Of a stretch of 17,868 bases of DNA, positions 1,142 to 3,790 are shown piece after piece. How positions within the stretch are numbered: the stretch's first letter is position 1; every line of letters begins with the position of its first letter. The notes under the pieces were generated by a model. It saw only the letters and a program-made list of their open reading frames with translations, was not told where the DNA came from and searched no databases. Source of the DNA: a virus (Duplodnaviria; Heunggongvirae; Uroviricota; Caudoviricetes); the IMG/VR virus record IMGVR_UViG_2698536484_000013, positions 1 through 17,868 of that record, one strand, 5' to 3'. The position numbers and the translations under genes are program-made.

Positions 1142-1427
1142 TATTTGGTTGTAACACGGCGTCTGGCACATGCGTCGTTAGCGGTCTGGTGACGTTAAAA
1201 GGGGGGAACCTTGCCCCTAGCTCAGGCAACGAACCAGGTAGCCGGAATGTGCAAGCCACCGTTTGTTGTTTCTCGGGTAAAGGGATTCACCATCCTGGCG
1301 ATTCGGTGTGACAGCCGGGAAGAGTCCGGCGCATTAATCCTGATTTTCTGGTGATGACTCATATCGTTAGGAGTGATTTGAGTATGCCGATTATATCTGA
1401 CATTCAGCACGCCTGGGTGGAGTGCTA

Positions 1428-2792
1428 ATGTCTGCATCCCCTCTTGAATCCATGCCAAATTCCCTTAGTGCAGAACAAGCTGTACTTGGTGGCTTAATGC
1501 TTGATAACTGCCGCTGGGATGAAGTTGCAGATCGTATAGTTGCTGATGATTTTTATACCAGTGCTCATCGTGAAATTTTCAGTGAGATGGAGAGGTTATT
1601 AAGTCATGGCAAACCGATTGATTTGATAACACTTGCTGAAGCACTTGAACAGAACGGTAAATTAGAACGCGCCGGTGGTTTTGCGTACCTTGCGGAGATG
1701 TCAAAGAACACGCCTAGCGCGGCAAATATTTGTGCTTATGCGGATATCGTTCGTGAACGCGCGGTTGTTCGTGAAATGATTTCCGTCGCAAATGAAATAG
1801 CCGAAGCTGGATATGTGCAGGATGGCAGGGGCAGCAATGAATTGCTGGATATGGCCGAGCGCCGCGTTTTTGAAATAGCTGAAAAACGACAAAAGAGCGG
1901 TAGTGGTCCAAAAGATATCGCCAGCATTCTCGATGCAACGGTATCTCGCATAGAAGAGTTGTTTCAGCGACCACATGATGGTGTAACGGGGCTTGATACG
2001 GGATTTACCGATCTCAATAAGAAGACGGCAGGGCTTCAGCCGTCCGATCTCATCATTGTCGCCGCCCGCCCATCTATGGGGAAGACCACGTTTGCGATGA
2101 ATCTCGTCGAAAATGCCGCAGTTCGTAACGATAAGCCCGTATTGGTTTTTAGCCTTGAGATGCCGAGCCACCAGCTGATGATGCGCTCACTGGCTTCTCT
2201 TGCACGCGTTGATCAGACTCGTATTCGGACAGGGCAACTTAACGACGAGGATTGGGCGCGGGTTTCTGGCGCAATGGGTATTCTGTTGGACAAGCAGAAT
2301 ATTTTTATTGATGACTCAAGCGCCCTGACGCCGACAGAGCTACGTTCCCGCGCTCGTCGTGTTTATAAAGAAAATGGTGGTTTGAGCATGATTATGATCG
2401 ACTACCTGCAACTTATGCGCGTCCCCGAGCTGCAAGATAACCGAACGCTGGAAATTGCCGAGATTTCTCGCTCACTGAAGGCGTTGGCGAAGGAATTACA
2501 AGTACCGGTGGTGGCATTGTCACAACTTAATCGATCGCTTGAACAGCGTGCGGACAAACGACCGGTAAATTCAGATTTACGTGAATCAGGAGCAATTGAG
2601 CAGGACGCAGACCTGATTATGTTTCTGTATCGCGACGAAGTTTATCACCCGGATAGCGAAATGAAGGGCATTGCCGAGGTAATTATCGGAAAGCAACGAA
2701 ATGGCCCAATTGGCACGGTGAGATTGGCTTTTAACGGCCAATACTCACGGTTTGATAACTATGCCGGTGCTGACTGGCAAGAGGATTATTAA
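1428..2792 (+). CDS. ban: DnaB-family replicative helicase, phage-borne DnaB analogue (Ban-like)
   Basis: About 454 aa; Walker A ARPSMGKTTF, Walker B MIMIDYLQLM, DnaB N-terminal AEQAVLGGLMLDN; strongly similar to enterobacterial DnaB as recalled but shorter at the N-terminus. The ORF track starts at GTG 1422; ATG 1428 is preferred (GGTGGAG 6 nt upstream). Symbol assumes the P1-like context. Confidence 0.9.
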   Translation: MSASPLESMPNSLSAEQAVLGGLMLDNCRWDEVADRIVADDFYTSAHREIFSEMERLLSHGKPIDLITLAEALEQNGKLERAGGFAYLAEMSKNTPSAANICAYADIVRERAVVREMISVANEIAEAGYVQDGRGSNELLDMAERRVFEIAEKRQKSGSGPKDIASILDATVSRIEELFQRPHDGVTGLDTGFTDLNKKTAGLQPSDLIIVAARPSMGKTTFAMNLVENAAVRNDKPVLVFSLEMPSHQLMMRSLASLARVDQTRIRTGQLNDEDWARVSGAMGILLDKQNIFIDDSSALTPTELRSRARRVYKENGGLSMIMIDYLQLMRVPELQDNRTLEIAEISRSLKALAKELQVPVVALSQLNRSLEQRADKRPVNSDLRESGAIEQDADLIMFLYRDEVYHPDSEMKGIAEVIIGKQRNGPIGTVRLAFNGQYSRFDNYAGADWQEDY

Positions 2793-3790
2793 TGCAATGG
2801 AATGAGGAAAAGCCGATGAACATCCTGATCATTGGGCGAAAATTTGCAGCCATCAGTGATGTGAAAACATATACGGAAATGTGGTCTTATAACCTGGCCT
2901 GCGCCTTTAGTGAGGCAGGGGTAACATTGCAATACCATCGTCCATATTCCCCTGGCGTCGAAAGCCCCGAGGATTATGTTGAAGCTGTGTTGACTGCTGC
3001 GACAGCATGTTCTGCGAAGGCCATTTTGGCACCAGGATTGAGGTATTTTACTACGGTACCCAGGGAAATAGGCATGCAACTGTGTCGCCGATTCTCTGGA
3101 TGGGTAGCCCAGGTATATGACGGTTCTATGCTGGATTCGGCACCAGTCGATATTACTTTTACTGTCCGCGATGATACCTGGCGGTACCTGGATAATCCCG
3201 GTCGGTTAGAACGTCATAATCGCTTTAACAAACATGTTGGATGGGCAGCGAATCAGGAGCTGTTCCATCTGGAAACCAAAACGGACGATGTTCTGCGTAT
3301 TTTTGTAGACCACGCTGCATTTGATGTTAGTGGTTTTGATCACTCCTTAAGTATCCTTATGAACCTTCAGCGTCTGACCGTTCCGTATGAGGCCAGAACG
3401 TTGACTGATGACGGATTGGTTACCATTGATCCGGGGAATATTTCGGTAACTCCATACAGGCGGACGCCGGTGCCAGCAACCGAATTTGCAGCTGAATTGC
3501 GTAAGAGTGACGTTTTTATCGTTACGCATCCCGAAAGCCTTGGATTAACTGTTCTTGAGGCGGCAATGTGTGGAGCGTTGATATTAACGCCGCCCGATTG
3601 CCTTCCGCCGGATCGCCTGGAGTTGGTGAACCATATGGTTATCAAGTCGCGGATTGATTGGGATGAGGTTATTGCTCGCGTTGATCGCGTGAAAAATGCT
3701 GAAAAGGTCCAGTGTCACACCTGGTCGGCAATTGCGGAAAAGATGCTTGAGACGTTTATCACGCAGAAACCGTCGCGCGGTAACGGATAA
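2792..3790 (+). CDS. GT-B fold glycosyltransferase-like protein (GT4-like EX7E motif), coupled to the helicase
   Basis: 332 aa; C-terminal SDVFIVTHPESLGLTVLEAAMCGALILTPP matches the EX7E motif and the ...EAma.G.P... region of retaining GT-B enzymes; N-terminus MNILIIG. ATG 2792 overlaps the helicase stop (TAATG) with GAGGA 6 nt upstream; alternative start ATG 2816 also has a GAGGA SD. Function is inferred from motifs only. Confidence 0.7.
   Translation: MQWNEEKPMNILIIGRKFAAISDVKTYTEMWSYNLACAFSEAGVTLQYHRPYSPGVESPEDYVEAVLTAATACSAKAILAPGLRYFTTVPREIGMQLCRRFSGWVAQVYDGSMLDSAPVDITFTVRDDTWRYLDNPGRLERHNRFNKHVGWAANQELFHLETKTDDVLRIFVDHAAFDVSGFDHSLSILMNLQRLTVPYEARTLTDDGLVTIDPGNISVTPYRRTPVPATEFAAELRKSDVFIVTHPESLGLTVLEAAMCGALILTPPDCLPPDRLELVNHMVIKSRIDWDEVIARVDRVKNAEKVQCHTWSAIAEKMLETFITQKPSRGNG

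Follow-up and report, generated by a model that had tools for sequence, protein, structure and literature searches.

The DNA examined here is a stretch of 17,868 nucleotides (the window) from the virus record IMGVR_UViG_2698536484_000013 (Caudoviricetes), and it was identified as a P1-like phage-plasmid, 99.5% identical to phage P1. The part in question runs from the tRNA gene trnI through the helicase gene ban to the gene dbn. I read it as the promoter-distal end of the C1-repressed ban operon, in which ban is gated at translation, dbn is an independent cassette, and a separate RNA module lies between trnI and the ban leader; the probability of this reading is put at about 0.6. Among the items reported here, the RNA, a covariation-supported family, is the most novel. 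It lies just outside the coordinates of a first-pass annotation of this DNA, made from the letters alone, which had described a DnaB-like helicase gene coupled to a glycosyltransferase-like gene and preceded by a 14-codon upstream open reading frame (uORF).

The helicase and glycosyltransferase-like genes are already known as the distal end of the P1 ban operon, and the pair as such is textbook P1 and ordinary. Megablast of positions 1000-4000 returned Escherichia coli P1-like phage-plasmids at 99.4-99.6% identity and phage P1 at 99.5%. As in the P1 record, trnI (tRNA-Ile2, anticodon CAT), ban ("replicative DNA helicase"), dbn and the convergent baseplate gene 5 follow each other in this order. 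The P1 record describes dbn as "function unknown, possible glycosyltransferase", while the equivalent gene is named glt in P7 and is a 'glycosyltransferase family 4 protein' in RefSeq. The annotation of ban and dbn in P1 dates from 2004. Lobocka et al. are said to have described the P1 ban operon (ban, dbn) in that year with the GenBank record AF234172.

A conserved structured RNA between trnI and ban

The 240 bp between the tRNA and the uORF had been taken to contain no operator-like site. This was borne out, as a scan with the C1 operator consensus of P1, allowing up to three mismatches, gave no match anywhere in 1-4000. The spacer is not empty, however, because a conserved structured RNA occupies positions 1153-1339 (Table 1). 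Its main helices are separated by variable hairpins, and a loop of one helix pairs with a downstream segment as a pseudoknot. Several blocks are invariant (GGCACAUG, UAGCGGUCUGG, CCAGGUAGCCGGAAUGUGCAAG, GGCGAUUCGGUGUGAC and a GAAGAG loop). The hairpin stems, on the other hand, are wholly different in sequence between lineages and still keep their pairing.

The covariation was tested with a structure specified by hand (H1, H2, H7, H8 and the pseudoknot) on alignments that were not fitted to it. In a 17-sequence MAFFT alignment, pairing holds in 95.4% of the cells and both sides have changed in 11 pairs; the slid controls gave 26-40% and 1-3 pairs, respectively. Across the test alignments, the values were 94.5-95.4% and 10-11 pairs, and those of the slid controls were 25-41% and 0-3. 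Shuffles of the 17-sequence alignment reached the observed value in 0 of 500 cases on four of five measures and in 6 of 500 on the fifth; outside this alignment, 0 of 500 did so on any measure. Covariation is seen in the pseudoknot itself, where A-U replaces C-G in three lineages, and in H2, where Tyrion and the Stenotrophomonas phage have C-G in place of U-A. Since a number of the conserved pairs are G-U, the fold is specific to the sense strand.

When the whole window was searched with Rfam 15 at the gathering threshold, only the tRNA reached the threshold. The P1, mEp460 and phiV10 versions of the element gave no family match at E values up to 10; apart from tRNA, nothing scored better than E 0.03, and what few hits there are up to E 10 lie at chance level. 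The literature on prophage small RNAs (Pas, AgvB/AsxR), put-like RNAs and new phage RNA motifs yielded no matching RNA. The element is an RNA family that is supported by covariation and is not annotated in any record seen.

Table 1. Coordinates of the features discussed (positions in the window)
Feature	Position	Strand	Remarks
trnI, tRNA-Ile2 (anticodon CAT)	1066-1141	+	ARAGORN; Rfam tRNA 62.3 bits; P1 record; in ban operon transcript
Conserved pseudoknotted structured RNA	1153-1339	+	Not annotated in any record seen; between trnI and ban leader
Helices of the RNA	H1 1156-1178; H2 1182-1190 with 1233-1244; H7 1282-1296; H8 1314-1330	+	
Pseudoknot of the RNA	1288-1291 with 1305-1308	+	H7 loop CACC with downstream GGUG
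Shine-Dalgarno sequence AGGAG of uORF	1370-1374	+	9 nt ahead of ATG 1384; read from sequence
14-codon uORF, peptide MPIISDIQHAWVEC	1384-1428	+	TAA 1426-1428 overlaps ban ATG (1428) as TAATG
Hairpin predicted to sequester ban start	1399-1432	+	Covers GGAG 1419-1422 and AUG 1428-1430; 5' arm is uORF codons 6-10
ban, DnaB-type replicative helicase, 454 aa	1428-2792	+	Pfam, E. coli DnaB match, P1 annotation
Sigma-70-like promoter inside ban	2155-2182	+	Prediction; coordinate offset matches predicted P2dbn of P1 record
dbn, GT4-like GT-B glycosyltransferase-like, 332 aa	2792-3790	+	Annotated start ATG 2792; conserved start ATG 2816
Bidirectional intrinsic terminator, AAAAGCCCG-aacgc-CGGGCTTTT	3813-3838	.	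Read from sequence; between dbn and baseplate gene 5
Baseplate gene 5	3837-4469	-	Convergent to dbn

Spread and genomic position of the RNA

By BLAST, positions ~1156-1324 are 77-90% identical to unannotated DNA in D6, phiV10/TL-2011b, Stx2-converting phages, cdtI and mEp460, and plasmids without ban carry such DNA as well. The exact 22-mer CCAGGTAGCCGGAATGTGCAAG is present in more than 120 IMG/VR contigs, which is a lower bound, and the element occurs in only 5 of 185,579 species-representative genomes (Escherichia, Citrobacter and Ca. Erwinia). A covariance model (R1) has a single copy in the window and full-length copies in mEp460 (188 bits), Tyrion (Enterobacter phage, 142 bits), BUCT708 (Stenotrophomonas phage, 132 bits) and SopranoGao (Klebsiella phage, 108 bits). 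The carriers comprise P1-like and D6-like phage-plasmids, Stx2-converting and other lambdoid phages, Uetakevirus, Lastavirus and a Stenotrophomonas phage.

The surroundings of the element fall into several types. It directly follows tRNA-Ile2 in P1, D6, D6-like plasmids and a distant phage-plasmid contig, and it precedes tRNA-Arg(TCT) by ~65 nt in phiV10-type phages. In lambdoid phages and the Stenotrophomonas phage, it lies just past a cI-like repressor gene, its terminator and operator/promoter-like repeats, and a strong terminator stands ~190 nt downstream, before the first open reading frame (ORF); for these contexts (the contig L048, mEp460 and BUCT708), the promoter was deduced from operator-like repeats and hexamers. 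The P1, phiV10 and SopranoGao contexts do not show this early-promoter/terminator position, and in SopranoGao the element follows the lysis cassette. Since the downstream genes differ, the element is not the leader of one gene family.

An extra 3' stem is present in the lineages other than P1; the P1/ban type diverges directly past H8, at ~1331, which suggests that a ban cassette with its uORF leader was joined to the RNA element there. In lambdoid and phiV10-type contigs (L048:8330-8570 and L009:2665-2741, respectively), the extra 3' domain is closed by a 12-bp stem (CAACGAUGAGAG...CUCUCAGCGUUG). D6 has an equivalent 3' stem of different sequence, and the P1/ban type has no 3' domain. In the lambdoids, further structured RNA and a strong intrinsic terminator come after this domain. 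The Citrobacter phage-plasmid CP101055 (L002:4230-4520) has no RNA element downstream of tRNA-Ile2; in its place are tRNA-like ends (GTGGTGTAGCTTAATTGG ... GGTTCGAGTCCCAGCG) interrupted by a long insert, on which ARAGORN made no call.

The element would be a separate mobile module, most likely released as a discrete RNA whose 5' end comes from 3' processing of the tRNA. Two ideas about its role are live: it may be a discrete RNA that is processed and binds protein, produced as derepression sets in, or it may act in cis as an antiterminator in the manner of put of phage HK022, though unrelated to it. A broader proposal, whose chances I judge to be even, is that the trnI-ban spacer holds an undescribed family of ~180-270 nt pseudoknotted phage RNAs acting on the transcription or translation machinery. 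The members would head repressor-controlled early transcripts or adjoin rare-codon tRNA genes. They might, for example, sequester a protein, or work as RNA-only antiterminators that have no relation to put. For P1, the same proposal has the RNA fused to a uORF-hairpin switch gating the helicase.

A proposed translational gate on ban

The uORF, its AGGAG and the TAATG that places its end on the ban start codon are all present as had been described. Neither the uORF nor a hairpin found over the ban start is annotated, any more than the structured RNA is, in the P1 and RefSeq records examined. The hairpin (1399-1432) has a folding energy of -17.0 kcal/mol, as against -8.4 +/- 2.3 kcal/mol in shuffled sequences, of which 2 of 1000 were as stable. 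It appears in both the minimum free energy and the centroid folds of the leader. In this fold, the Shine-Dalgarno (SD) sequence and the AUG of ban would be locked in a stem, the 5' arm of which is part of the uORF. Ribosomes translating the uORF would open this stem and terminate at the UAA of UAAUG, after which ban could be initiated or re-initiated. The translation of ban is probably gated by such a uORF-hairpin device, with the uORF as its most plausible moving part; this would be a new case of a mechanism already known.

Part of the variation among P1-like elements would fit such a gate. I compared 101 P1-like copies of the locus (some contigs were fetched twice), which fall into 11 haplotypes over the 87 nt preceding ban. 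The uORF is intact in 100 of the 101 copies, with no stop or frameshift despite 10 variable sites, and its AGGAG, start codon and TAATG are invariant except in one rearranged copy (L202). All ten haplotypes fold into the hairpin. The variable sites 1411, 1413, 1414, 1417, 1418 and 1419 are every one of them in the hairpin loop, and the stem pair 1407-1425 is seen as G-C, G-U and A-U. The peptide is not kept in the same way, since six distinct non-synonymous changes (A10T, W11R by two routes, V12M, V12G and C14Y) were found beside five synonymous ones. All six are within the last five codons. Because the changes cluster there, any effect of the uORF would be exerted by the passage of ribosomes and not by the peptide, which does not appear to be conserved as such. 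Of the leader-peptide coupling suggested in the first-pass annotation, the coupling is plausible, with the TAATG and SD now joined by a hairpin that had gone unseen, while a role of the peptide itself loses ground. Among the P1-like copies compared, the uORF is intact in all but L202 and its peptide varies; the leader occurs in P1-like elements only.

The rearranged copy (IMG/VR contig 3300045988_115882; L202:2081-2500) has lost trnI, the RNA element and the first three codons of the uORF. The breakpoint is in codon 3, no in-frame ATG is left, and ban is intact, so that L202 is effectively a natural deletion of the uORF start. The sequence found in their place includes a promoter-like stretch and comes after an ORF that, judged by eye, has Mor-like C-terminal residues. 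A further observation concerns codon 1393-1395 of the uORF, a rare isoleucine codon AUA read by the tRNA-Ile2 that is encoded 250 nt upstream in the same transcript. The idea that this codon serves as a sensor of tRNA-Ile2 was rejected, as the neighbouring genes have 1-3% AUA and a single such codon among 14 does not stand out.

The helicase call of the first-pass annotation was correct: the protein is P1 Ban. Both DnaB domains were detected by Pfam (DnaB PF00772, E 2.5e-35; DnaB_C PF03796, E 5e-108), and residues 6-452 align with E. coli DnaB (6bbm) at E 3e-234. The Walker A GKT lies within RPSMGKTTFAM. According to what Lemonnier et al. reportedly found in 2003, P1 Ban has hexameric helicase activity and replaces host DnaB. 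The features of Ban seen here depart in nothing from the literature.

dbn as an independent cassette

At the ban-dbn junction, the TAATG overlap (ban TAA 2790-2792 on ATG 2792) and an SD sequence (AAGAGGA 2779-2785) were confirmed. A further ATG in the same frame, at 2816, is preceded by an SD sequence of its own (GAGGAA 2804-2809) and is the start common to nearly all Dbn homologues; 13 of them begin with MK(I/L)LIIG, aligned to Met9. Moreover, in 18 of 100 P1-like copies (e.g., the IMG/VR contigs L019 and L108, at the equivalent of window 2792-2815), an extra ORF of ~100 codons (MQRKLTKRNKNW...VREKETQ) separates ban from dbn. The same TAATG serves as its start, and its TGA and the equivalent of ATG 2816 overlap as ATGA; sequence identity with the window begins again exactly at that ATG. 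PADLOC gave no match for this extra ORF. Residues 1-9 are unstructured in the Dbn model. Because of the homologue starts, the extra-ORF junction, the unstructured residues and the SD sequence of its own, ATG 2816 is most likely the real start of Dbn. The TAATG start at 2792 would be a slot shared with another cassette, which here happens to be in frame. The fold of the ban-dbn junction is not significant (z = -0.75). Of the signals for the co-translation proposed for the two genes, TAATG and SD are present, but another gene uses the TAATG in the 18 copies and the conserved start is elsewhere. Tight coupling is possible, with 23 nt from the ban stop to ATG 2816; it is not a conserved design.

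Where Dbn homologues occur elsewhere, their neighbours are different. Two unknown PHROG proteins precede the homologue, and an Rrf2 regulator follows it, in a Citrobacter phage-plasmid and a contig related to it; two other phage contigs have it flanked by an MptE-like protein (phrog_2111) and another glycosyltransferase (phrog_1962); in Colwellia, it belongs to a polysaccharide-export cluster with a WaaZ-like 3-deoxy-D-manno-oct-2-ulosonic acid (KDO) transferase. No helicase stands beside the homologue in any of these contexts. The downstream gene had been called an unexpected partner of a replicative helicase; the relatives of Dbn never adjoin one in these contexts, and the gene after ban is not itself conserved, as the TAATG-coupled ORF of the 18 copies shows. 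To judge from these arrangements, dbn travels as an independent cassette, and its pairing with the helicase appears to be a cassette accident, not functional coupling.

What Dbn may be is indicated by its fold. A confident structure model has two Rossmann-like domains, with the EX7E motif in the C-terminal one, and the structural matches are GT-B enzymes of glycosyltransferase family 4 (GT4), the best of which act on sugars, lipids and small molecules. The motif HPESLGLTVLEAAMCG occupies residues 246-261 (nt 3527-3574), the two glutamates being E248 and E256. Both are invariant in 18 Dbn homologues down to 39% identity, together with H246, S249 and G251, and the same is true of R275 and a GWAA block. 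Thus, the GT-B assignment of the 332-aa protein has held, with a GT4-like fold in the structure search and an invariant EX7E. Profile searches agreed less well, since the curated profiles stayed below threshold (Pfam) or silent (NCBIfam) while the fold matched. The family is small (27 clusters; phrog_2518, mostly phage and plasmid). Dbn is modelled here as a retaining-type GT-B (GT4-like) glycosyltransferase-like accessory protein, the fold being shown and the function putative. Since its homologues are linked to WaaZ-like, MptE-like and other glycosyltransferase genes, Dbn most likely modifies a cell-envelope glycan such as the lipopolysaccharide (LPS) core and would not be a partner of the helicase. 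The LPS core is the receptor of P1.

Operon context

Transcription would start at Pban/Oban, ~3.2 kb upstream of ban and outside the window, as indicated by the P1 record and a near-identical plasmid. The transcript would then pass tRNA genes, an accessory gene, trnI, the structured RNA, ban and dbn, and end at the bidirectional terminator. The bivalent operator Oban was located in a plasmid 99.6% identical over window 1000-4000; it lies 3.2 kb upstream of ban, directly past a dam-like gene, as in reference P1. This distance explains why no operator is found near ban. The C1 operator consensus with 1-3 mismatches has four matches elsewhere in the window, against 0.06 expected by chance (8661-8677 on the minus strand, 12285-12301 on the plus, 12334-12350 on the minus and 14426-14442 on the plus); they are presumably known P1 operators before other operons.

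The accessory gene differs from reference P1. An SPFH/Band 7 lipoprotein gene (211-1038, plus strand) occupies the place that tciA, tciB and tciC have in the reference operon, and it is another swappable cassette of the ban operon; PADLOC found no match for it. The promoter predicted inside ban is the sole promoter-like match within 1-4000, and the P1 record has two predicted promoters, P2dbn and P1dbn, both within ban. CRISPR interference found ban, dbn and trnI non-essential for lytic growth. In a delta-hfq host, the ban and dbn transcripts are reported to go up and trnI of the same operon down, which suggests post-transcriptional control of the distal part of the operon.

Comparison with known systems

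In tap-repA of plasmid R1, repY-repZ of ColIb-P9 and icd-ant of P1, translation of a uORF opens a stem-loop that hides the downstream ribosome-binding site. The ban leader seems similar to these systems, in that a short uORF overlaps or abuts the start of a replication-related gene and a stem-loop would mask its ribosome-binding site. It differs from them because no antisense RNA partner or activating pseudoknot was identified at ban, and coupling is proposed here from the hairpin, the variation pattern and the integrity of the ORF. Dbn resembles GT4 enzymes (PimA, BshA, WaaG/WaaB, GlgM and sucrose-phosphate synthase) in its two Rossmann domains and in having EX7E in the C-terminal, donor-binding domain. 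Compared with these enzymes, to which its identity is 10-15%, it is shorter (324-332 aa), falls below the Pfam threshold and has a reduced N-terminal domain without the usual glycine-rich loop.

For the RNA element, two kinds of precedent can be considered. Stable RNAs are encoded in phage tRNA clusters, such as species 1 and 2 of T4, and large structured phage RNAs, ROOL and GOLLD, occur near tRNAs. Like these, the element is non-coding and co-oriented with adjacent phage tRNA genes; because it adjoins them, tRNA processing would define one of its ends. It has no sequence or model similarity to these RNAs (no Rfam match), is much smaller than ROOL or GOLLD, and is without a tRNA in the lambdoids. 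The put RNA is ~70 nt long and has two stem-loops (PMC9378689). In lambdoids, the element seems to occupy the same place as HK022 put, just downstream of a predicted early-left promoter and upstream of terminators. It differs in size and fold, with ~180-270 nt, at least five helices and a pseudoknot, and in the HK022 regions scanned, no similarity to the covariance model was found.

Alternative readings

Several observations weigh against the gate on ban. The leader is confined to P1-like elements with identities of at least 99% outside the hot spot (for the best 80 Ban loci of IMG/VR, the range is 99-100%), and with so little diversity its conservation is weak evidence. L202 is a natural variant that keeps ban without the uORF start. 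The compensatory change at pair 1407-1425 comes from one haplotype with two copies, and another haplotype (four copies) has a stem mismatch that leaves a hairpin of only -6.9 kcal/mol as modelled. The whole-leader fold is not unusually stable (z = -1.37). The GGAG of ban is 5 nt from the AUG and partly in the loop, so ban could initiate independently; translation of the uORF and the dependence of ban on it are proposals read from the DNA. It is thus possible, though I consider it less probable than the gate, that the uORF is incidental and untranslated, and that the hairpin alone throttles ban or serves mRNA stability or processing, keeping the helicase low, with ban starting from its own GGAG when the hairpin breathes. 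This would fit the variable peptide and L202 as well as the chance level: given TAATG, an ORF that ends on it, begins with ATG, is 10 or more codons long and has an SD-like motif arises in ~1-1.6% of shuffled or random 95-nt leaders, which is uncommon and alone not decisive. It would not account for a canonical, well-spaced AGGAG, nor for a frame that is uninterrupted in 100 copies despite 10 variable sites, spans the entire 5' arm of the hairpin and ends exactly on the ban AUG. The helicase-transferase pairing invites a second alternative, that Ban and Dbn are functional partners, Dbn glycosylating replicating phage DNA or a replication protein and the overlap enforcing stoichiometric co-production. 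The TAATG with its SD and the single operon would agree with it; it is nevertheless highly improbable, because no homologue elsewhere adjoins a helicase, another ORF intervenes in 18 of 100 P1-like copies, the homologue starts align with the Met at 2816, and Dbn matches best the structures of GT4 enzymes that act on sugars, lipids or small molecules. P1 DNA is not known to be glycosylated. That Dbn is active at all may also be questioned. Pfam Glycos_transf_1 (PF00534) scored 23.9 bits, under the gathering cut-off of 26.4, and on residues 229-315 only; NCBIfam and PADLOC had no match for Dbn. The proposed envelope-glycan target is drawn only from the genes next to distant homologues, and ATG 2792, the annotated start, is still usable. 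With the glycine-rich loop missing from the N-terminal domain (as read from the alignment), a family of 27 clusters and a non-essential gene, Dbn might be a degenerate or non-catalytic GT-B-fold protein, e.g., a sugar-nucleotide binder or a structural protein. I hold this to be very unlikely, since EX7E, H246, G251, R275 and the GWAA block are invariant down to 39% identity and both Rossmann-like domains are modelled with confidence.

As to the RNA, the module proposed above may instead be a cis regulator of the downstream genes, such as an RNA-only processive antiterminator like HK022 put. Polymerase would then be carried past the untranslated tRNA stretch to ban-dbn in P1 and through the following terminator in lambdoids. 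The lambdoid arrangement, in which the element opens the early-left transcript and a strong intrinsic terminator stands ~190 nt on, ahead of the first ORF, speaks for this reading, and so does its place in P1, within a repressor-controlled operon and upstream of protein-coding genes; the long invariant unpaired blocks and the pseudoknot suggest binding of a macromolecule. I consider it unlikely all the same. R1 had no match in 12 kb of HK022 (24,000-33,600, which should include the immunity region), and the element is far larger than the two-stem put and otherwise folded. What follows it varies with the context (ban, unknown ORFs or tRNA-Arg), it is ~65 nt upstream of a tRNA in phiV10-type phages, P1 is without the 3' domain of other lineages, and no terminator stands between the element and ban. 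Covariation by itself would also fit a single-stranded-DNA signal (a priming signal), to which only a remote chance is given, as the element is co-oriented with promoters and tRNA genes and its G-U pairs are conserved on the transcribed sense only.

Implications

P1 has been a model phage for 70 years and is the backbone of widespread phage-plasmids that carry resistance. What is new for P1 is, in part, a concrete proposal for a translational gate on its DnaB analogue. In addition, the likely start of dbn is corrected, and dbn appears to be modular, which points to envelope-glycan modification and not to replication. Finally, P1 has an unannotated structured RNA with strong covariation that Shiga-toxin phages and others possess as well. 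As it is placed directly behind the immunity repressor and early promoter, the RNA is a candidate early regulator. If it is functional, it would represent a new RNA class in the early gene control of phages.

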